DNA of 64,000 nt from Escherichia coli (GCF_003991155.1 NZ_CP031293.1); one strand, 5' to 3'; positions 51,420-61,725 are shown, numbered from the stretch's first letter. Program-made: numbers and translations. Notes: generated by a model from the sequence alone, not told the origin.

Positions 51420-52793
51420 ATGAGTTCCGTCATTGAAACTACTCAATCAACTTCATCCGATTCCTTACCTTTAATACAGCGGATTAGCTACGGCTCACTG
51501 GATGTTGCCGGTAATCTGCTCTACTGTTTTGGCTCTACCTACATTCTTTATTTCTACACCGACGTAGCAGGGATTAGTCTGGCGGTTGCAGGCATAATCC
51601 TACTGCTGGCGCGCATTGTAGACGGTATTGATGCGCCAGTGTGGGGAATCATTATCGATAAAACCCATTCGCGTTATGGAAAATGCCGTCCATGGTTTTT
51701 ATGGTTACCATTACCTTTTGCTGTATTTAGTGCGCTTTCTTTCTGGTCACCCGATATCAGCATGACAGGGAAAGCTGTTTATGCAGCAATATCGTACATG
51801 TTAGCCAGCATTCTGTTCACTGGGTTGAATACACCATTAAGCGCTATATTACCGCTGATGACGCTGTCACCAAAGGAACGCCTGGTATTAAACTCATATC
51901 GCATGACTGGTGGGCAAATTGGCGTACTATTAATGAATGCGACAGCATTGCCATTGGTCGCTTTCCTTGGTAATGGTAACGATAAAGCAGGCTTTATATA
52001 TACTGCCATAGTCTTTGCCGTAATATCCTGTGCCTTAACGTTGTTTGCCTTTAAAAATATTCGCGAACTGGATACCGATAAAATACAGCAAGAACCACGA
52101 CTGCCGATGAAAAAGAGTTTTTCGGCAATGAAAGGGAACTGGCCGTGGCTCCTGATGGTAGTGGCGAACCTTATCTTCTGGATTGCCCTACAGCAGCGCA
52201 ACACTACTATTGTTTACTATTTAACCTACAATCTGGATCGCAAAGATCTGGTCCCGCTGGTTAACAGCCTCGCCACCATTCAGATCCTGTTTATCATTGC
52301 CATTCCGTTCTTCAGTCGCTATCTCACCAAAACCTGGATTTGGATTACCGGGCTGCTGGTTGCGATGTTAGGCGGGGGCCTCATGTGGCTGGCTGCCGAC
52401 AGCATCCCTTTGATGATCGCCGCCTGGGTACTCGCCAATATCGGCAGCGGTATCGCCTGTTCTATGCCTTTCGCGATGCTCGGTTTCGCCGTTGACTTTG
52501 GTCGCTGGAAAACCGGCATTAAAGCTACCGGCATTCTGATCGCCTTCGGCAGCACCTTCTGCATCAAGATGGGCAGTGGTATCGGTACAGCTTTCGCTGC
52601 CTTTATTATGGACAGCTTTGGTTATATCCCCAACCAACAACAGACGGCTGCGGGGTTGGAAGGTATCAGCCTGGCATTTATCTGGGTCCCTGCGCTGCTC
52701 TTTGCTCTCGCGGCTGTACCACTGCTCTTCTTTCGCCAGTATGAAGCGATGGAAGGTCGTATCCAACACGATCTGCAAGCCCACAATCGTTGA
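51420..52793 (+). CDS. GPH-family (glycoside-pentoside-hexuronide:cation symporter) sugar transporter, accessory
   Basis: 457-aa polytopic ORF with MelB/YicJ-like N-terminus; not part of the K-12 rpsT–nhaR region as I recall it. Confidence 0.8.
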   Translation: MSSVIETTQSTSSDSLPLIQRISYGSLDVAGNLLYCFGSTYILYFYTDVAGISLAVAGIILLLARIVDGIDAPVWGIIIDKTHSRYGKCRPWFLWLPLPFAVFSALSFWSPDISMTGKAVYAAISYMLASILFTGLNTPLSAILPLMTLSPKERLVLNSYRMTGGQIGVLLMNATALPLVAFLGNGNDKAGFIYTAIVFAVISCALTLFAFKNIRELDTDKIQQEPRLPMKKSFSAMKGNWPWLLMVVANLIFWIALQQRNTTIVYYLTYNLDRKDLVPLVNSLATIQILFIIAIPFFSRYLTKTWIWITGLLVAMLGGGLMWLAADSIPLMIAAWVLANIGSGIACSMPFAMLGFAVDFGRWKTGIKATGILIAFGSTFCIKMGSGIGTAFAAFIMDSFGYIPNQQQTAAGLEGISLAFIWVPALLFALAAVPLLFFRQYEAMEGRIQHDLQAHNR

Positions 52794-52832
52794 ATTTAAT
52801 CAACATGCCACTTGCTCCTGGGAGGAACAATT

Positions 52833-54872
52833 ATGTCGTTTATTAAGCAAGATCCCCACCGTCTGGTCTGGCAACAAGACGATCGTTATCTCTGGATTGA
52901 AGCCTGGGGCGAAAACAGCTTACGCGTGCGAAGCGGCCGCCATTTACCGGTAATGCGCAATGAAAACTGGGCGTTAACTCAGGATCCTGGCGATGCTGTC
53001 GCTCATATCACCTGGGATGAAAAACAGGCAACGCTGAGAAATGGTAAAATCACTGCCATCGTAAATCTTCAGGGCCAGCTCTCTTTCTGGCGTAATGATG
53101 ATAAATGCCTGCTGCAAGAGTTCTGGCGTCAACGTGGCGAAATTGGTGAAGATGAGTCAGCACACGGCCAATATGTGAGCGCTCTTAATCTACAGGCCCG
53201 TGAATTCAAGCCTATTCCTGGCGGGAAATTTACGATTAAGGCACGATTTGAAGCCAACGATGGCGAGAAACTCTTTGGCATGGGTCAGTATCAGCAACCA
53301 AACCTGGATTTAAAAGGTTGCATGCTGGAGCTGGCACAACGTAACTCGCAGGCTTCTGTTCCCTTCCTGCTATCAAATCAGGGTTATGGTTTTCTGTGGA
53401 ATAACCCAGCAATTGGCCGCGTCACCTTCGCGCAAAACGGTACGGAATGGGTAGCAGAAGTCAGTGAACAACTGGACTACTGGATCACTGCGGGCGATAC
53501 TCCGGCTGAGATCAGTGAAGCCTATGCACGAGTAACCGGTACGCCACCGATGATGCCTGATTACGCAATGGGGTTCTGGCAATGCAAGCTTCGCTATCGT
53601 AATCAACAAGAATTGTTAGAAGTCGCACGCGGCTACAAGCAACGCAATCTTCCGATCTCGGTGATTGTCATCGATTTCTTCCATTGGCCGAATCAGGGTG
53701 ACTGGATGTTCGATCTGCGTGACTGGCCCGATCCCGATGCGATGATCGCCGAATTAAAAGAAATGGGTATCGAACTGATGGTTTCATTCTGGCCTACCGT
53801 AGATAACCGTACCGAGAGTTATCGGGAGATGAAAGAAAACGGCTGGCTAGTCCACACCGAGCGTGGTTTGCCTATCAATATGGATTTCCTTGGCAACACC
53901 ACGTTCTTTGATGCGACACATCCTGGCGCACGGGAATATGTCTGGAACAAAGCCAAACGCAATTATTACGATAAAGGCGTGAAACTGTTCTGGCTGGATG
54001 AAGCCGAGCCAGAGTTCGGTGTTTACGATTATGACAACTATCGTTACTACGCAGGGCCAGTGCTGGAAGTCGGTAATATCTATCCGCGTATGTACGCCAA
54101 AACGTTCTTCGATGGCATGCAGGCAGCCGGAGAAAAGCAGGTGATCAATTTGCTACGCTGCGCCTGGGCCGGTAGTCAGAAATATGGTGCCCTGGTGTGG
54201 TCAGGCGATATCCACTCCTCCTTCCGTTCTCTGCGCAATCAGTTTGCTGCGGGGCTGAACATGGGAATTGCCGGGATCCCGTGGTGGACGACGGATATTG
54301 GCGGTTTCCACGGTGGCAACATACATGATCCAAAATTTCATGAACTGCTTATTCGCTGGTTCCAGTGGGGGGTATTCAGCCCAGTAATGCGTTTACATGG
54401 CAACCGCGACCCGCAAGTTTTGCCTGAACAACCCTATCGTGATGGCATCGCACAATGTCCGACTGGCGCGCCGAATGAAGTCTGGAGCTATGGTGAAGAA
54501 ACCGGTGAAATTCTCACTTCCTGCCTGCAGTTGCGTGAGAAGCTGAAACCTTATATCAGTAAAATTATGGCTGAGACGCACGAGAAGAACAGCCCGGTAA
54601 TGCGCACGATGTTCTTTGAGTTTCCAGACCAGGCAGAAAGCTGGAATATTTATGATCAGTACTGCTTTGGCCCGGACCTTCTCGTTGCCCCTGTAATGCA
54701 CGAAGGTACACGTTCACGTGATGTCTGGTTGCCTGCCGGAGAGACATGGATCGATTTTTATACCCATGAACACTACGCGGGTGGGCAAAAGCTTCATCAT
54801 TGCGCGCCGCTGCACCAGATACCGGTATTCATTCGTGAGAAAGGGAAATATCGCCAGTTATTACCCGTTTAA
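52833..54872 (+). CDS. Glycoside hydrolase family 31 (alpha-glucosidase / alpha-xylosidase-like), accessory
   Basis: ORF-track frame 52812-54872; start placed at the ATG after SD GGGAGGA (MSFIKQDPHRL); GH31-like FWLDEAEPE and WSGDI segments; 19 bp after the transporter. Confidence 0.8.
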   Translation: MSFIKQDPHRLVWQQDDRYLWIEAWGENSLRVRSGRHLPVMRNENWALTQDPGDAVAHITWDEKQATLRNGKITAIVNLQGQLSFWRNDDKCLLQEFWRQRGEIGEDESAHGQYVSALNLQAREFKPIPGGKFTIKARFEANDGEKLFGMGQYQQPNLDLKGCMLELAQRNSQASVPFLLSNQGYGFLWNNPAIGRVTFAQNGTEWVAEVSEQLDYWITAGDTPAEISEAYARVTGTPPMMPDYAMGFWQCKLRYRNQQELLEVARGYKQRNLPISVIVIDFFHWPNQGDWMFDLRDWPDPDAMIAELKEMGIELMVSFWPTVDNRTESYREMKENGWLVHTERGLPINMDFLGNTTFFDATHPGAREYVWNKAKRNYYDKGVKLFWLDEAEPEFGVYDYDNYRYYAGPVLEVGNIYPRMYAKTFFDGMQAAGEKQVINLLRCAWAGSQKYGALVWSGDIHSSFRSLRNQFAAGLNMGIAGIPWWTTDIGGFHGGNIHDPKFHELLIRWFQWGVFSPVMRLHGNRDPQVLPEQPYRDGIAQCPTGAPNEVWSYGEETGEILTSCLQLREKLKPYISKIMAETHEKNSPVMRTMFFEFPDQAESWNIYDQYCFGPDLLVAPVMHEGTRSRDVWLPAGETWIDFYTHEHYAGGQKLHHCAPLHQIPVFIREKGKYRQLLPV

Positions 54873-54929: not shown

Positions 54930-55835
54930 CTATCGTGAGGCGGGAGAAAACAACGAAGAATAATCCGTATTGCAGATTCGCTGTACCGCCGGGTGCTGAA
55001 TCATCCGCTCAGCAAAAATAGCATGGTACTCTTCCATCACATTTTCGACGCGACCAATTTCTACGACAGTTTTATCGGCATAAAAGTCATATGCATAAAG
55101 CGTTGGGGCAACGAAGATTGCATTGTGCATCGCACCAAAAGCTTTCATCAACGCGGCATCATCAAACTCGCCGAGGATTTCTACGTTTAATCCCTGGGAG
55201 TTAAACCAGTTAAGCAATTTGCGCCCTAACATTGAACGTCGCCCAGGAATCAAAAGCCGCCGTTCTTCCAGACAAGCCGGGAACGGTTTTTCCGGTGGTG
55301 GATTTGTACACCAGAAACTCACGCCACATTCGCCAATTCTCACGGAGAACAGACCTTCCTGCTGCGTAGAATCTATCGGACAGTCGGAAATGATCATATC
55401 CAGTTTATGCTGACTTAATTGCTCCAGCAGCATTTCGTGGGTGGATTCGAAGCAGCGAAGATGAATCGGCTCGCCTTCTACCACTGCGGCGTTAAGTACG
55501 CTACTGACCAGGCGTTTAGAAAGTGCATCAGCCACGCCAACGTCAAACAATAAATTGGATTCTTTGCGATAGTTCACGATATCCAGCATTTCCTGGCTTA
55601 AGGTGAACATTTTATCGGCATAGCGATAGACCAGCTCTCCCAGCTCGCTGGGTTCGAGACCACGTCCCTTGCGCTTAAATAATTTGCCTTGCAGGCGCTC
55701 TTCCAGCGCCCGAATCTGTCCGGTAATGGTTTGTGGTGTTAAATAAAGCGCCTCCGCTGCGCCAACCACGGAACCTTCTTTATAGACATGCCAGAAGTAA
55801 TACAAGTGGTTGTAATTGATATGAGACATGCTCAT
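54930..55835 (-). CDS. nhaR: LysR-type regulator of nhaA
   Basis: ORF-track frame 54930-55853; start placed at [30 protein letters not shown], giving 301 aa. Confidence 0.95.
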
Positions 55836-55894
55836 TTCTCTCCCTGATAACAATGAAAAGGGAGCCGTTTATGGCTCCCCGGTAAACCGTCCTG

Positions 55895-57061
55895 TCAAAC
55901 TGATGGACGCAAACGAACGCGTAACCAGCTGTATCCAATTACCGCCGAAGAGATAGAACCGACCAGGATACCGAGTTTCGCCCAGTTAATCAGTTCTGGA
56001 TCTACGCTACCAAAGGCAAGGCTGGCAATAAAGATAGACATAGTAAAACCGATACCGCACAGGATCCCCACCGCCATAATTTGCTGATAAGTCGTTCCCT
56101 CAGGCAGATGCGCCAGTTTCAAACGCAGCGCCAACCAGCAGAACAGACTAATACCCAGTGGCTTGCCAATCAGCAAACCGGCGATGATCCCTAATGGCAG
56201 AATGGAGGTCAGGCCATCCAGCGTCACGCCTTGCAGAGATACCCCCGCATTGGCAAACGCAAACAGCGGCAAAATCAGATATGCCACCCACGGATGCAAA
56301 ACATGCTCCAGACGTTTAGCCGGAGAGCGCCCATGCTTCTCTTTTAACGGAATAAAGAAGCCGACAATGACGCCAGCCAGGGTTGCATGGACACCTGATT
56401 TCAACACCGCTGTCCACAGTACCACGCCAACCAGAATATAAACGCCCGTGCGACGAACACCACAGATATTCAGTACCGCGAGTACCGCAATTGCTACAGC
56501 CGCGACGCCAAGAGAGGCCATCGATAAGTCATTAGTGTAGAACAATGCGATGATAATGATGGCCCCAAGATCGTCGATAATAGCCAGAGCCATCAAAAAG
56601 ATCTTCAGCGCTAACGGAACACGACTTCCCAATAGCGCCAGCACACCAAGTGCAAAAGCAATGTCAGTAGCCGCCGGGATCGCCCACCCTTCGCGGGTAA
56701 TCGGATCGGCATAGTTAAAGGCCAGATAGAGCAATGCCGGCACAATCATCCCACCAATAGCGGCGATAACTGGAAATGCGGCCTGGCGTAAGCTGGCTAG
56801 CGATCCTTGCATCAGTTCACGTTTAACTTCCAGACCGACTAACAGGAAAAATACCGCCATCAGCGCGTCATTTATCCATAACAGCATGTTTTTGTTGATT
56901 TCGAGTGAACCAACCCGGAGCTGAACCGGCGTCTCCAGAAAGTCGTGATACCATCCACTGGTTGCGCCGCTATTGGCCATAATCATCGCCAGGATAGCGG
57001 CAATGATAAGAATAATGCCTCCCGAGGCATCACTGCTAAAGAATCGATGCAGATGTTTCAC
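55895..57061 (-). CDS. nhaA: Na+/H+ antiporter NhaA
   Basis: 388-aa ORF beginning [31 protein letters not shown]. Confidence 0.96.
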
Positions 57062-57312
57062 TTTTTATTTCTCTTTCAGGTGAATAGATCGTTTTTACTA
57101 TTTTACCCCGCACGAATCATCGTTAAAATCAGATTATAGTGTAGGAATAATTCGTTTTTTACGAACCATTGAAGGATTTGTGCCATCAGCGATGAGATGA
57201 GTTTTTGACGGCTGTAAGCGCTCACGAGTGACCCTAAGCCCTGATAATCATAGCTTAAGGTCAGGATTTCTGAGGGATTAATTAGGAAAAGTAATAATAA
57301 AATCGCACTGTG

Positions 57313-58557
57313 CTATAGCTGTTTATTCCAGAGATGCTTGAAAATATCTAATGTTGAGACAACATTGGCAGGCGACATTCGGTTTAATGAGGGTAGAAAG
57401 GGATGAGCCTCCAGGAAGTTGATAAAACGAGTCGCGCTTGCTAACGTCGAATACCGCATTTCATTTGCTTTCTTGTTTCCTGTAAGGTTACAAACAGCCA
57501 TTGAATAATCACGGGCGGAAAATGTACGCCAAACATTATTTCTCACGCCACCACTCAAAAACAACCGCGGCGGCGTATCATAATGAGTCGTTTTCTCGCC
57601 GCGTTCTTTCACAAATGAAATATGGCACCGGCCTTGATGAATATGCTGTAAATTAGCCATTAGACAACCGCCTAATATAAAGCACTCGTGATCAAGGTAG
57701 TGTTGAATATTTATAGAATATGCTTCAGTCAGTGCTCTAACCAGTTCAAAATGGCGATACGCCGGAAGAACCGGTTTCACCAGCATCCCCGGATCGTTTT
57801 GATGTAATATCGCCCGACCATAATCAATATCAAATAAGGTATCACGCCGCATAGTAAGTAACTCCTTGCGTTGTACGTGATGCGCCAGTGTCCCTGGAGA
57901 CAAACGCTCTTCATAACTTGATGCATATTGATAATGCGACTCTACCGCTGATGAAGAATAATTTGTTGAAATAGCGACGACTCTACCGCTTTGTTCTTCT
58001 GCGGTAACAAGACTATAAAGATAGTTGTTACTACCGTTAAACTTTACGCGAAAAGCGCGGGTAGATAGAGAAATATCAGAAGCAGAAGAGTATTGGCAAC
58101 TTTCTTTATAGTTTACTTCCCGGGCTAGTTTCATCAACTCACGGTTAAGCCCTGTGCTATTAAGAAGTAATAATTTACGGATATCTGCAAGTGAAGCACC
58201 TTGATCAATCATCAATGCTAAATGTGTTCTTCGCGGCGTTGTATTTACATGATCCAGAGTGATAAAAGTTCTGGAACAATGATGACAATACATTCTCCTC
58301 TGCCCCTGAGCTGAATAGCCATACTTTTTCAGAGATGTGCTTCCGCAAGCTGGACATTGTGAAACCACCCCTCTCCATGAATGATTAACACGATTACGAT
58401 AAATATTAAGAGATCGTTCAGATATCACAGGAAACAAGTAACCGCATTCCCGACATAAAATATTTTTGCCTTGTGCAATATAATCCTGGCTATTCAACAA
58501 CCCCAGGTTTTTGCATCCTGGTGTTTTGCAACAATCAACATTTACGTTGGTAAACAT
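57313..58557 (-). CDS. Hypothetical Cys-rich protein with two N-terminal zinc-ribbon-like CxxC pairs (InsA-like finger), accessory
   Basis: ORF-track frame 57313-58593 (426 aa); start placed at the internal ATG with SD AGGGAG (MFTNVNVDCCKTPGC...), giving 414 aa; CRECG, CPACGSTSLKKYGYSAQGQRRMYCHHCSRTF; no CxxxCxxC radical-SAM motif. Confidence 0.6.
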   Translation of the reverse strand: MFTNVNVDCCKTPGCKNLGLLNSQDYIAQGKNILCRECGYLFPVISERSLNIYRNRVNHSWRGVVSQCPACGSTSLKKYGYSAQGQRRMYCHHCSRTFITLDHVNTTPRRTHLALMIDQGASLADIRKLLLLNSTGLNRELMKLAREVNYKESCQYSSASDISLSTRAFRVKFNGSNNYLYSLVTAEEQSGRVVAISTNYSSSAVESHYQYASSYEERLSPGTLAHHVQRKELLTMRRDTLFDIDYGRAILHQNDPGMLVKPVLPAYRHFELVRALTEAYSINIQHYLDHECFILGGCLMANLQHIHQGRCHISFVKERGEKTTHYDTPPRLFLSGGVRNNVWRTFSARDYSMAVCNLTGNKKANEMRYSTLASATRFINFLEAHPFLPSLNRMSPANVVSTLDIFKHLWNKQL

Positions 58558-58686
58558 ATTCACTCCCTGCGAATACCCGGATATTATCGTCATATGTCAA
58601 AGAAAAGAACCTGATTCAATGTGTAACATTGAATCAGGCGGGCATAGCCCTGAAAGGCATACATTACATTTATTATGGTTATCAGA

Positions 58687-60180
58687 TTAGCCCCAGGTTA
58701 CCGCTTCCGGTTTATCACCTCTGGCTTTCATTAATGAATCATTATCAATATCGGCTTTATACTTTAAGAACTTACCATACATTTGTTTTTCAATGTCTGG
58801 ATTTTTACCTATCTGATTAATGGTCTCAAAACGATCGGTTTTGAGGTTGTATAGGTACTTTGGCTTATTGTTACGATCGATGATCATTTTCCAGTCACCA
58901 TCACGTATCGCCCATTCGTCGGTTGGATCATCCTGGAATGGCATGTCAATTCCGAAGATTAATGGCTTTTCACGTTTTAGCGCTTTGTTCTCAAGGACAG
59001 GAACCAACGATTCGCCATCAAAAGTGCGGTCTGTCGGTAATTTGAAGTTCATCATTTTCGCCAGCGTAGGCATCCAGTCCAGCCCATAAACAGGCGTATC
59101 TGAAACCATTCCCTTTGGAAGATGCTTTCCGTATTTAATAATCGCCGGAACACGGATGCCACCTTCCCAGAGATTATCCTTGCGACCACGTAATCCATCA
59201 GTTTCCCCTGCCAAATTCAGTTCATAAACTTTACGTGCTTCACGGGTTACTGGGCCGTTATCACTGGTAAAAATAACGATGGTGTTATCTTCTTCACCCA
59301 TCGCTTTGATTTTATCCAGTACTTTTCCAACCTGAGCATCCAGATAACTGATGTTGGCATAATATTCTCCTGGACCACGCCAGGGTTTATCCGCCCAGTC
59401 GCCATAAAATAAATCAGGATGCTGCTTCTGATATTCGCTCATATATTGTGAGTACATGTCGAGGTATTTTTTGGGCGAAGCCAGGGGACTGTGCACTTCG
59501 GTAAAAGCGACATAAAGGAAGAAAGGCTTACTGTCCTTTTTGTTATCCAACCAGTTGACGACTTCCGAACTGACATACTCACCACTCATTTTATCGGAAC
59601 GTGGTGTGGGTTGCCCGTTACGCAACCAGCCCGTTGGATAGACCATGCCAAAACGGGGACGCTCCTTCGCATTATCCAGAGTAGCGTCGGTAACAAAACC
59701 CGCCGTATTAACCAGTGAGTAATCAAAGCCCATATCTTTTGCCTGCGGCTGATCGGTGCGATCGCCGCCTGCATTCAGATGCAGCTTACCCATCATGGCC
59801 GTGTCGTACCCTTGCGCTTTGAGTAGATTAGCAATCGTGAGTTCATTACGCCCTAATGCCACATCTTTTCCCGTTGGGATCCATGAGCGTATGCCGGTAC
59901 GAAATGGCATCCGCCCTGTTAATAGTCCCGCCCGTGAAGGAGAACTTAAGGGGGCAGGTGCATAATAGTCGGTAAATTTGACGCCTTCCTGGGCAAGCCT
60001 GTCTATATTGGGCGTTTTAACGATCTGATGTCCATATGTTGCCAAATCACCATAGCCTAAATCATCCGCCATAATGATGACTAAATTGGGTTGTTTAGTT
60101 TCGGCGGCTACGGCTGGATTAAAAGCATTCCCTGTGCAAACTGCAAGGCCGATCAAACTGGCCATTAATGTTTTCTGCAT
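58687..60180 (-). CDS. Ser-type sulfatase (periplasmic), accessory
   Basis: ORF-track frame 58687-60216; start placed at MQKTLMASLIGLAVC (signal peptide), giving 497 aa; sulfatase signature SSPSRAGLLTGR with Ser at the formylglycine position; IIMADDLGYGD N-terminal motif. Confidence 0.85.
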   Translation of the reverse strand: MQKTLMASLIGLAVCTGNAFNPAVAAETKQPNLVIIMADDLGYGDLATYGHQIVKTPNIDRLAQEGVKFTDYYAPAPLSSPSRAGLLTGRMPFRTGIRSWIPTGKDVALGRNELTIANLLKAQGYDTAMMGKLHLNAGGDRTDQPQAKDMGFDYSLVNTAGFVTDATLDNAKERPRFGMVYPTGWLRNGQPTPRSDKMSGEYVSSEVVNWLDNKKDSKPFFLYVAFTEVHSPLASPKKYLDMYSQYMSEYQKQHPDLFYGDWADKPWRGPGEYYANISYLDAQVGKVLDKIKAMGEEDNTIVIFTSDNGPVTREARKVYELNLAGETDGLRGRKDNLWEGGIRVPAIIKYGKHLPKGMVSDTPVYGLDWMPTLAKMMNFKLPTDRTFDGESLVPVLENKALKREKPLIFGIDMPFQDDPTDEWAIRDGDWKMIIDRNNKPKYLYNLKTDRFETINQIGKNPDIEKQMYGKFLKYKADIDNDSLMKARGDKPEAVTWG

Positions 60181-60199
60181 AATTATTCCCTGATGAAAA

Positions 60200-60961
60200 T
60201 TAGAAATCATAACCAAGCATATAAATCATTTGATCGCCAAAACCATCGTAGCCCAACTTATTATCGAAATAACGCCACGTCACACTGGCTTTCCAGCGAG
60301 GATAGAACTTCCAGGCCACTGTTAAACCGCCATTTAGCCCATTCCGACCAAATTGTTGTTCCGCATAGGCATCATTTCTGTCCAGTTCTATTTCATTCCA
60401 GTTAGATAAAACAAATTTTTCGTCAAATAACGTAAAAGGTAATACTGCTGTCCAGCCAACAACATAACCATTCCAGCCATTTGTTTGTCCATATTTGGCT
60501 GAGACGTAGTCTCCAGATTGATTATGCAATCCAATATACGGTTTAAAAAACCCCCATGAACCATTCCAGCCGAGGTAGCCCAAACCATAAAACATATCAA
60601 GATCGTCACCCCATGAGTTATCCCATTGACCATAGATCTTGCCAAAGAAAGTCATATTGGAGTCAAAGAGTCTGACATGTGTCATAGCAGAAACGGTATG
60701 ATTACGCCCCGCTACGGCATGGTTAAGCACATTGCTTTCATAAAATGAGTAAAACTCGGCTTCTTTAAAATTCACACCAAAGTCTGCAGTCACTTTCCAT
60801 ACTTCACCACGATGAGTGTTAACGAAGCCACTATTCCAGTCAGCATAACCTGCATTTATTGAGCCAAAGGAACCTTTATATTCTAATGAAGAATATGCAG
60901 GAAGGTGATAGAAAATCGTTGTCAGGGCACACGCAATAAGAAGCCGTCTTTTGGCAGACAT
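60200..60961 (-). CDS. Tsx-like outer-membrane beta-barrel channel, accessory
   Basis: 253-aa ORF with signal peptide, W/Y/G/N-rich alternating segments, C-terminal aromatic (…LGYDF) typical of OM beta-barrels; resembles the Tsx C-terminus (…VGYNF). Confidence 0.65.
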   Translation of the reverse strand: MSAKRRLLIACALTTIFYHLPAYSSLEYKGSFGSINAGYADWNSGFVNTHRGEVWKVTADFGVNFKEAEFYSFYESNVLNHAVAGRNHTVSAMTHVRLFDSNMTFFGKIYGQWDNSWGDDLDMFYGLGYLGWNGSWGFFKPYIGLHNQSGDYVSAKYGQTNGWNGYVVGWTAVLPFTLFDEKFVLSNWNEIELDRNDAYAEQQFGRNGLNGGLTVAWKFYPRWKASVTWRYFDNKLGYDGFGDQMIYMLGYDF

Positions 60962-61469
60962 ATAATATGCTCTCCATTCATTGTTTTTATGGTTCCATAG
61001 AAATCAATACATCAGATAATTCATTTTGATTAAGAACGACTCAGAAAGTATATTTAAAGGTGAATGGCAAAGCGTGATGGAGATCGCAGATTACTTTTAC
61101 CCCCGGGTGTGGAGGTATCGTGTTTCAAAAAATGTGTCGATTTTAAATATCACTCATTGATTTATAAACATTTTTCCTCACAAAAAGAAAATTCAATTCT
61201 GTACAAGAATATTTTGTATCTTCTATTACTTTCTCCAGTAATAACTCACCATTCAGGCATAACTTAAACCTCTTGTTCATAATCTCAACTTTTGTAAATG
61301 AAAACGCACATAAGAGTTAAAATAAACAATGTACTAAAGATTGATTACGCAAAAATGCGAGGCGTCTTCAGGATTAGAATCGATAAAACAGAATGGGTTA
61401 AAGAGAGCGATATAATAGCGGCGGGTGCTTGAGGCTGTCTGTCTCAGGCATTAGCTGAACGGCAGATAG

Positions 61470-61540
61470 AGAAAAGCCCCGAGTGATATTTTACCATCAA
61501 CCCGAGGCCCCCTATATGCAGAACACATGTAGAGTGCCTC
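61470..61540 (-). ncRNA. sokC: Putative SokC antisense RNA (approximate)
   Basis: Placed by analogy with hok/sok loci, where Sok is antisense to the mok translation-initiation region; boundaries not determined from the sequence. Confidence 0.3.
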
Positions 61541-61725
61541 TTACTGACCGTAAGGTCAAGGAGAAGAGAGCAATGAAGCAGCATAAGGCGATGATTGTCG
61601 CCCTGATCGTCATCTGTATCACCGCCGTAGTGGCGGCGCTGGTAACGAGAAAAGACCTCTGTGAGGTTCACATCCGAACTGGCCAGACGGAGGTTGCTGT
61701 TTTCACGGCTTACGAATCCGAGTAA
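61516..61725 (+). CDS. mokC: MokC, regulatory ORF overlapping hokC
   Basis: ORF-track frame 61483-61725; Met at MQNTCRVPLTDRKVKEKRA, running into the Hok frame. Confidence 0.7.
   Translation: MQNTCRVPLTDRKVKEKRAMKQHKAMIVALIVICITAVVAALVTRKDLCEVHIRTGQTEVAVFTAYESE
61573..61725 (+). CDS. hokC: HokC small membrane toxin (type I toxin-antitoxin)
   Basis: MKQHKAMIVALIVICITAVVAALVTRKDLCEVHIRTGQTEVAVFTAYESE, 50 aa; Hok/Gef family. Confidence 0.88.
   Translation: MKQHKAMIVALIVICITAVVAALVTRKDLCEVHIRTGQTEVAVFTAYESE

Follow-up and report, generated by a model that had tools for sequence, protein, structure and literature searches.

Are three genes that lie between nhaA and hokC in some Escherichia coli strains, and that K-12 lacks, an acquired island or what is left of an older locus? 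The question is raised by a stretch of 64,000 nucleotides of E. coli DNA (NZ_CP031293.1; the whole stretch is called the window below), which corresponds to the E. coli dnaK-dnaJ-mokC/hokC ... nhaA-nhaR region in an orientation reversed with respect to K-12. In it, nhaA (55895-57061) and mokC/hokC (61483-61725) bracket three genes on the minus strand, which code for a porin, a sulfatase and a zinc-ribbon protein. An earlier interpretation made from the sequence alone (the sequence-only reading) had taken the interval 57062-61480 for an accessory island. Our searches with Pfam and NCBIfam bore out its three co-directional genes and their identities, but it had overlooked that a cognate maturase gene (anSME) is missing and that the formylglycine motif of the sulfatase is of the Ser type. 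The block is a variable module already on record, its genes are of ordinary types, and it is better called a retained ancestral sulfatase locus than an acquired island; on balance we favor the view that it is what Escherichia has kept of an old enterobacterial cluster for the utilization of sulfate esters at the dnaJ-nhaA site. Two points add to its interest, as we infer from the sequences: across the genus the maturase has been lost and, coupled to this, Cys has changed to Ser under continued purifying selection, and the third component appears to derive from a transposase. The features on which the argument turns are the following:

57299-61346, no strand: variable block of 4.05 kb, with 41.7% G+C against 52.0% for the window
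60200-60961, minus strand: gene of a Tsx/OmpK-family outer-membrane channel of 253 aa (Pfam PF03502 Channel_Tsx, E = 1.3e-13, 51.7 bits against a gathering cutoff of 27.2)
58687-60180, minus strand: gene of a periplasmic S1 formylglycine-dependent sulfatase of 497 aa from the ATG (Pfam PF00884, E = 1.3e-58)
59944-59946, minus strand: codon 79, AGT (Ser79), the predicted formylglycine precursor in the motif S-S-P-S-R, read from the sequence
57313-58557, minus strand: gene of a probably transposase-derived protein of 414 aa from the annotated ATG, with two Cys4 zinc ribbons, a helix-turn-helix and an RNase-H-like domain

Synteny, Boundaries and Prevalence of the Block

The same genes, in the same order and at the same dnaJ-nhaA site, are found in Salmonella, Citrobacter, Klebsiella, Kosakonia, Phytobacter, Kluyvera and an uncultured enterobacterium (UBA3516). 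Synteny at this site in at least six genera therefore identifies an ancestral cluster that most E. coli have lost, and the acquisition implied by the word island did not hold up.

Within E. coli, the block is accessory. We searched 5426 complete genomes of the species, counting as carriers those with at least 80% of the island, and found it in 1271 (23%), as one copy each and on the chromosome every time. The copies form at least three sequence classes: identity to the window allele is at least 95% in 223 genomes, including IAI39 of phylogroup F (99.2%), between 90 and 95% in 132 (PMV-1, APEC O2:K1:H4) and between 80 and 90% in 926 (ST131, LF82). The block is missing from O157:H7 Sakai as well as from K-12-like strains; with these counts, the locus cannot be described as core in E. 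coli and deleted in K-12 alone, a possibility that the sequence-only reading had itself raised. Its absence from the K-12 interval, also claimed there, was confirmed by aligning an empty site: in a blastn comparison with the K-12-like strain 08-00022, homology stops at 57298 and restarts at about 61347-61350. The interval first proposed thus contains the block, but the true indel spans 57299-61346 and the remainder is flank common to all E. coli, namely 237 bp on the nhaA promoter side (57062-57298) and 134 bp on the sokC/mokC side (61347-61480). Empty sites hold about 125 bp of AT-rich DNA in place of the block, and the similarity of this filler to the island was no better than that of shuffled controls. 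Searches at the block for terminal inverted repeats, a target-site duplication or a deletion scar gave chance-level matches only, and no integrase or tRNA was found there. We also considered a defense island and rejected it, as PADLOC had no match for the porin or the sulfatase and the third protein reached merely E = 0.008 on its zinc-ribbon stretch.

The locus has been described before. Lescat et al. (2014, PLoS One; PMC4182557) defined five modules around nhaAR, which are hokC, sulfatase ("putative cerebroside sulfatase"), nhaAR, fimbrial and type III secretion system effector; they are low in G+C, were gained and lost several times over the E. coli tree and are all present in IAI39. Their sulfatase module is the same locus as our block, so the presence/absence finding is not new. 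The genes of the module, however, were not analyzed in that work; what the present analysis adds is the absence of anSME, the change from Cys to Ser, the synteny outside Escherichia and the character of the third gene. Literature searches on the Salmonella orthologs (STM0034-37), on the sulfatases of Nissle 1917 and on bacterial domesticated transposases returned nothing bearing on the locus.

Loss of the Maturase Gene and a Serine at the Formylglycine Position

The sulfatase matches PF00884 at profile positions 1-300 of 301, with 199 bits against a gathering cutoff of 25, and starts with a Sec signal peptide that ends in ...NPAVA, followed by AE. Both sulfatase signatures can be read in the translation: the first, of the form (C/S)-x-P-S-R-x-x-x-L-T-G-R, as SSPSRAGLLTGR, and the second, which we searched as G-Y-x-T-x-x-x-G-K-x-H, as GYDTAMMGKLH. 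The metal and catalytic residues are all intact.

In other genera, a radical-SAM/SPASM anSME gene usually stands between the sulfatase and zinc-ribbon genes, as was seen for Salmonella, Citrobacter, Klebsiella, Kosakonia, Phytobacter and UBA3516, and the maturase of the Salmonella locus scores 534 bits on TIGR03942 ("anaerobic sulfatase maturase") against a cutoff of 349. Escherichia copies consist of three genes only, without anSME, in all six lineages examined (the window and phylogroup F, B2, the cryptic-clade strain MOD1-EC7003, two E. albertii and E. whittamii). In the window, 129 bp separate the stop codon of the sulfatase from the next gene, and a tblastn search of the whole window with the Klebsiella anSME detected no remnant (best E = 3.7). 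The same six lineages all have SSPSR with the AGT codon. CSPSR, with Cys encoded by TGT or TGC, is present in 20 of the 20 non-Escherichia copies with a readable motif, four of which have no anSME. The simplest history is one T-to-A change (TGT to AGT) and one deletion, both genus-wide in Escherichia, as far as the sequences allow us to judge. As a side observation, anSME was independently lost in K. spallanzanii, Phytobacter massiliensis, Kluyvera intermedia and K. oxytoca, where the Cys-type motif was kept; maturase loss alone, therefore, does not force the change from Cys to Ser.

The genes of the block are nevertheless not decaying. Among the alleles of the window, B2 and E. albertii, dS (synonymous divergence) is 0.45-1.25, and the ratio of nonsynonymous to synonymous divergence (dN/dS) is 0.02-0.03 for the sulfatase, 0.03-0.06 for the porin and 0.08-0.12 for the third gene. 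Values of 0.02-0.12 for all three genes at such dS indicate strong purifying selection.

Ser-type S1 sulfatases require an anSME, in what is known as AtsB-type maturation. Since the motif is of this type and the block has no anSME, its sulfatase should depend on a maturase encoded elsewhere, and maturation in trans is plausible but unproven. By analogy with known pairs, YdeM is the most likely candidate and AslB the alternative. YdeN of K-12, 26% identical to the block sulfatase, is likewise of the Ser type (SGPSR), and the gene after it encodes YdeM, with 44% identity to the anSME of the Klebsiella locus; ydeM is present in 5334 of the 5426 E. coli genomes (98%). UTI89, which we take to be ST95/B2, would belong to a lineage that has the block in PMV-1 and APEC O2:K1:H4. 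In this strain, ydeM was found to be a fitness gene in a transposon-sequencing study of cystitis (PMC8767336). The genes ydeMN are co-transcribed, and ydeM expression was raised in a mutant adapted to the gut of mice (PMC10878103). The pairs ydeN-ydeM, aslA-aslB and Klebsiella atsA-atsB each join a periplasmic S1 sulfatase to an adjacent anSME, exactly as in the clusters of Salmonella, Klebsiella and Citrobacter, whereas the Escherichia block has no maturase next to its sulfatase and adds a Tsx-type porin and a protein of likely transposase descent. This contrast between Cys-type orthologs with a private maturase and Ser-type ones with none in Escherichia is a natural experiment on sulfatase maturation, and bears on how E. 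coli makes formylglycine. The zinc-ribbon protein was also considered as a "third" formylglycine system of E. coli; we rejected it, given that K-12 does not have the block yet reportedly still matures Cys-type sulfatases (Benjdia and colleagues in 2007, with aslB/ydeM mutants), and that the protein coexists with anSME in other genera.

Several observations weigh against maturation in trans by YdeM. Orthologs of ydeM beyond E. coli and Shigella are sporadic and merely about 65-70% identical, and we know of no established maturation route for a Ser-type sulfatase in E. coli, whose sulfatase maturation systems others have called incompletely understood (PMC8379841). The remaining point comes from PDB entry 3ED4, an "arylsulfatase" from E. 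coli that aligns with the block sulfatase over 492 residues (1110 bits) and whose N-terminus fits the B2 allele. It is the same protein, although the entry, from New York SGX structural genomics, is unpublished and without biochemical characterization. In the literature it has been used only as a molecular-replacement model, in a study that grouped it with "mutants" without metal-sulfate contact (PMC9063841), and this grouping may reflect a Ser left unmodified in the laboratory-made protein.

These observations bring up a different explanation, according to which the Escherichia protein is no longer a formylglycine enzyme and, with Ser79 unmodified, works as a weak or altered hydrolase whose nucleophile is serine, as in alkaline phosphatase, or serves to bind a sulfated ligand in the periplasm. 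The loss of anSME and the Cys-to-Ser change do fall in the same lineage, 3ED4 was handled as mutant-like (PMC9063841), and the very low dN/dS shows that the sulfatase is still needed for something, whatever its chemistry. Moreover, a metagenomic Ser-type S1 sulfatase was active from E. coli and in vitro with no obvious maturase, and its authors raise formylglycine-free activity as one hypothesis (PMC8379841). Nevertheless, we regard this explanation as unlikely, since the S-x-P-S-R-x-x-x-L-T-G-R signature and the metal and catalytic residues are unchanged, as expected if recognition by anSME and formylglycine chemistry persist. Ser-type formylglycine sulfatases are, as is generally known, a well-established class, of which YdeN-YdeM is a predicted member. 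A formylglycine sulfatase matured in trans is thus the reading that we retain.

The Porin-Sulfatase Unit and Its Putative Control Elements

The porin is the first gene of a porin-sulfatase operon, with 19 bp between its stop codon and the ATG of the sulfatase. Its translation shows an N-terminal signal peptide, MSAKRRLLIACALTTIFYHLPAYS, and an aromatic C-terminal end, GYDF. RefSeq names it "outer membrane protein OmpK"; on the NCBIfam model PRK11528 it obtains 120.4 bits, under the cutoff of 282, and it is therefore a paralog and not the PRK11528 equivalog. Like Tsx, the nucleoside channel, and Vibrio OmpK, it is a Channel_Tsx member of similar size, and it stands first in a catabolic unit with a CRP-like box upstream. 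It differs from them in that the Channel_Tsx profile aligns only to residues 104-253 and in that no solved structural relative was detectable by sequence.

Two elements frame the unit:

58599-58639, minus strand: stem-loop followed by a T-run, intrinsic-terminator-like, 48 nt past the sulfatase stop codon, with a 14-pair stem, a 3-nt loop and the tail TCTTTTCTTT
61073-61088, minus strand: 16-bp palindromic box TGCGATCTCCATCACG, of the form TGNGA-N6-TCAC and CRP-like, 127 nt upstream of the porin ATG

The RNAalifold consensus of nine taxa keeps the terminator stem, and both sides have changed at 6 of the 12 main-stem pairs. In Salmonella, Klebsiella and Kosakonia, too, a terminator-like element stands at this place, ahead of the anSME gene. 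With a conserved terminator-like hairpin after the sulfatase, porin and sulfatase therefore make up one unit and the downstream gene or genes another. A second short element, TATGCC-N5-GGGC-N3-GCCC, lies just upstream of the terminator stem (58640-58665, minus strand) and is kept in all genera; it is conserved beyond what a terminator needs and could be part of an RNA derived from the 3′ untranslated region or a protein-binding site.

At the other end of the unit, the palindrome is the sole strongly conserved block in an alignment of the porin upstream regions of ten loci, and each of the 16 promoter regions of the locus examined across genera has one such box, among them those of the sulfatase genes that are transcribed separately in Salmonella and Citrobacter. 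A TATACT hexamer (61047-61052) follows 20 nt downstream, which would put the center of the palindrome near -41. It is the conservation of the box that speaks for it, because the bare CRP-like pattern occurs at chance level in the window, with 19 matches against 25 expected, and this frequency weighs against control by CRP. A further box, YTGAMAC (61122-61128, minus strand), is found 39-40 bp upstream of the palindrome, with fixed spacing in 10 of the 16 promoter regions, and from its position is a candidate operator for the locus regulator. We also examined whether the RNase-H-like third protein might work an invertible promoter as a phase-variation switch, and discarded this idea, as the promoter region has no flanking inverted repeats.

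A Third Protein of Probable Transposase Descent

The third protein carries two zinc ribbons (C10/C15/C35/C38 and C68/C71/C91/C94), an IS1 InsA-like helix-turn-helix at about residues 108-155 and a C-terminal RNase-H-like domain at about 160-414. Residues 80-111 match NF050000, the NCBIfam model of the zinc-binding domain of IS1/IS1595 (37.1 bits, cutoff 28), and the second ribbon together with the helix-turn-helix matches positions 1-83 of the 199 of the IS1 transposase profile, which are the DNA-binding part of InsA. Over the whole protein, the score on transpos_IS1 is 30.6 bits, far under the cutoff of 100, and that on IS1249 is 19 against 300; no Pfam DDE domain was found in it. An AlphaFold model built from close homologs alone was poor, with a predicted local distance difference test score (pLDDT) of 58.9. 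Full-length relatives at greater distance came from a profile search among 1.8 billion representatives, and with these added the model rose to a pLDDT of 92.2 and a predicted TM-score of 0.92, with an RNase-H-like fold. As modeled, the C-terminal fold resembles those of DDE transposases and integrases. The DDE triad is not conserved: at positions set by secondary structure, not by residue-level superposition, the acidic residue of beta1 is present in 16 of 49 members, the position after beta4 reads K-P-V with an invariant Pro, and E291 alone is kept. Across the family, R238, P262 and H269 are invariant and H290, E291, Y246 and W343 nearly so.

The protein therefore shares with IS1 InsA and IS1595 an N-terminal Cys4 ribbon followed by a helix-turn-helix, and a C-terminal fold like that of DDE transposases, but it has an extra N-terminal ribbon, no conserved DDE residues, no inverted repeats, a single copy, found at just one place in each of 1281 genomes, and a fixed syntenic position. 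Single copy, lack of inverted repeats and fixed position across genera identify a transposase-derived host gene and not an insertion sequence. Homologs with 53-96% identity occur in Enterobacteriaceae only. A homolog with 33% identity is part of a porin-sulfatase-anSME module of the same make-up elsewhere on the chromosome (L034), and one with 28% identity abuts anSME. Distant homologs (L014/L033; P0083, P0094) are transcribed divergently from a deoB-like/PNP/nucleoside-permease operon and from a gene for a UshA-like 5′-nucleotidase. The intergenic regions that they share with these nucleoside genes carry CRP-like TGTGA-N6-TCACA sites.

From the deep linkage to the sulfatase and the divergent position of the distant members, which is that of a local regulator, we read the third protein as the regulator of the locus. 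The zinc-ribbon identity given in the sequence-only reading was correct and the regulatory role proposed there is plausible, and we consider an exapted transposase that acts as DNA-binding regulator of the locus to be the probable interpretation. What weighs against it is that R238, P262, H269, H290 and E291 have been kept, so that a catalytic role in place of a regulatory one is possible. The zinc-ribbon/RNase-H-like family may represent a wider class of uncharacterized regulators.

A bolder version, which we put forward tentatively and think less likely than not, is that an IS1/IS1595-like transposase was exapted and fixed throughout the history of Enterobacteriaceae as a transcription factor dedicated to the sulfatase locus, its dead RNase-H-like core being reused for ligand sensing or oligomerization. 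Separately, the Escherichia ancestor would have swapped maturases, deleting anSME, replacing Cys with Ser and making the enzyme a client of YdeM. If true, bacteria would here offer a rare and clean case of transposase exaptation: a conserved protein of transposase descent, single-copy and tied to a metabolic operon.

Downstream of this gene, no terminator-like site was found between its stop codon (57313) and the nhaA promoter region (57062-57312), and read-through into nhaA is therefore possible in strains that bear the island.

Proposed Function and Substrate

We propose that a small sulfated compound would cross the outer membrane through the Tsx/OmpK-type channel and that the Sec-exported S1 sulfatase, to judge from its family and signal peptide, would strip off the sulfate in the periplasm. 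Because the block encodes no inner-membrane transporter, we assign uptake of the product, of sulfate or of both to housekeeping transporters; there is no downstream catabolic gene in the block either. Porin and sulfatase would be expressed as the one transcription unit that the conserved terminator hairpin closes. The third gene product, with its zinc ribbons, helix-turn-helix and degenerate RNase-H-like core, would most likely act as a locus-specific DNA-binding regulator, and the CRP-like box at about -41 relative to the TATACT hexamer suggests catabolite control. In the Escherichia ancestor, anSME would have been deleted and the precursor residue changed to Ser by the single TGT-to-AGT substitution, leaving formylglycine conversion to a maturase encoded elsewhere, by analogy most likely YdeM and alternatively AslB. 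We would then expect the sulfatase to work mostly where the YdeM and AslB maturases are made, in anaerobic, gut-like conditions. Later, most E. coli lineages would have lost the whole block, while phylogroup F (IAI39-like, as the window) and B2 retained it with alleles 10-20% apart.

Uptake and desulfation of a sulfated substrate had already been suggested in the sequence-only reading. Entry through the porin followed by periplasmic desulfation does appear to be the most economical mechanism, but the sulfated glycans named as an example are unsupported, as nothing points specifically to glycans. In Salmonella and Citrobacter, the cluster has two arylsulfate sulfotransferase genes and a UshA-like periplasmic nucleotidase as neighbors; these hint at aromatic sulfate esters no less than at glycans. 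After 3ED4, the best solved chains for the sulfatase are human steryl-sulfatase, GalNAc-6-sulfatase, carrageenan sulfatases and arylsulfatase A, with E-values from about 1e-54 to 1e-46. We tried to derive the substrate from these relatives and gave this up, since the E-values are similar and no subfamily stands out.

The neighbors also bear on a second explanation, in which the block serves neither carbon catabolism nor glycan foraging but sulfur scavenging, and sulfate is freed from aromatic sulfate esters during sulfate starvation, as by atsA of Klebsiella and Pseudomonas. The sulfotransferase genes that flank the cluster in Salmonella and Citrobacter would suit this role, as would the aryl- and steryl-sulfatases among the nearest solved homologs and a block devoid of an inner-membrane transporter or downstream catabolic gene. 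We find it improbable, given that the sole conserved cis-element is CRP-like and at a class II position, indicative of catabolite control and not of control by CysB/Cbl, although the assignment to CRP is itself weak. Utilization of a sulfate ester, possibly under catabolite control, remains our preferred reading. The block is one of the differences between the extra-intestinal lineages B2 and F and K-12-like strains, and it adjoins nhaAR, genes that have been linked to virulence. Were the sulfatase active in the gut or urinary tract, roughly one quarter of E. coli genomes, ST131, ST95 and LF82 among them, would gain access to a sulfated compound from host or diet that is out of reach for K-12.

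Allele History and Neighboring Variation

In a comparison over 54930-61346, the B2 allele (porin, sulfatase and zinc-ribbon genes) is 95-97% identical to that of E. whittamii and 80-90% to that of the window, which in turn is closest to IAI39 and to the cryptic-clade strain MOD1-EC7003. At this locus, alleles within the species differ from one another as much as, or more than, they do from E. albertii (dS 0.45-1.25). These comparisons point to an exchange of alleles between Escherichia species. Lescat et al. also reported that B2 strains diverge strongly from non-B2 ones, which they ascribed to transfer from a close Escherichia lineage (PMC4182557), and their proposal of inter-lineage transfer for nhaAR would extend to the sulfatase module.

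That a mobile element brought the block in as a horizontally acquired island, with the zinc-ribbon gene as a remnant of its transposase, is the least probable of the explanations considered: the low G+C (41.7% against 52.0%), the patchy occurrence within E. coli, the transposase-like third protein, E. coli alleles 10-20% apart with a B2 allele 95-97% like that of E. whittamii, indicating that recombination between species moved alleles, and the horizontal transfer proposed for the region (PMC4182557) all agree with it, but at least six genera have the genes in one and the same order at the dnaJ-nhaA site, searches for terminal inverted repeats, a target duplication, an integrase or a tRNA gave nothing, the transposase-like gene is single-copy, under purifying selection, without conserved DDE residues and linked to the sulfatase even at 33% identity, and homologous recombination that exchanged alleles accounts for the data better than an inserted foreign island would.

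Two further observations concern variation at and near the retained locus. In NZ_CP066806.1 (strain TCM3e1), whose island is 100% identical to that of the window, an IS4-like element, ISVsa5, has inserted and the sulfatase is annotated as two pieces; insertion of such elements is therefore another route to inactivation of the locus. On the plus strand of the window, between rpsT and nhaR (51420-54872), lies a two-gene module of an MFS_2 sugar transporter and a GH31 glycoside hydrolase, which is missing from the five-module list of Lescat et al. The same position holds a fimbrial operon and espX1 in IAI39 and Sakai, and in this the window differs from IAI39, which has fimbrial and espX1 modules in place of the pair. 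The MFS_2 and GH31 module is present at the locus in 638 of the 5426 genomes, in two divergent allele classes, one with at least 99% identity (73 genomes) and one with 80-90% (566 genomes).

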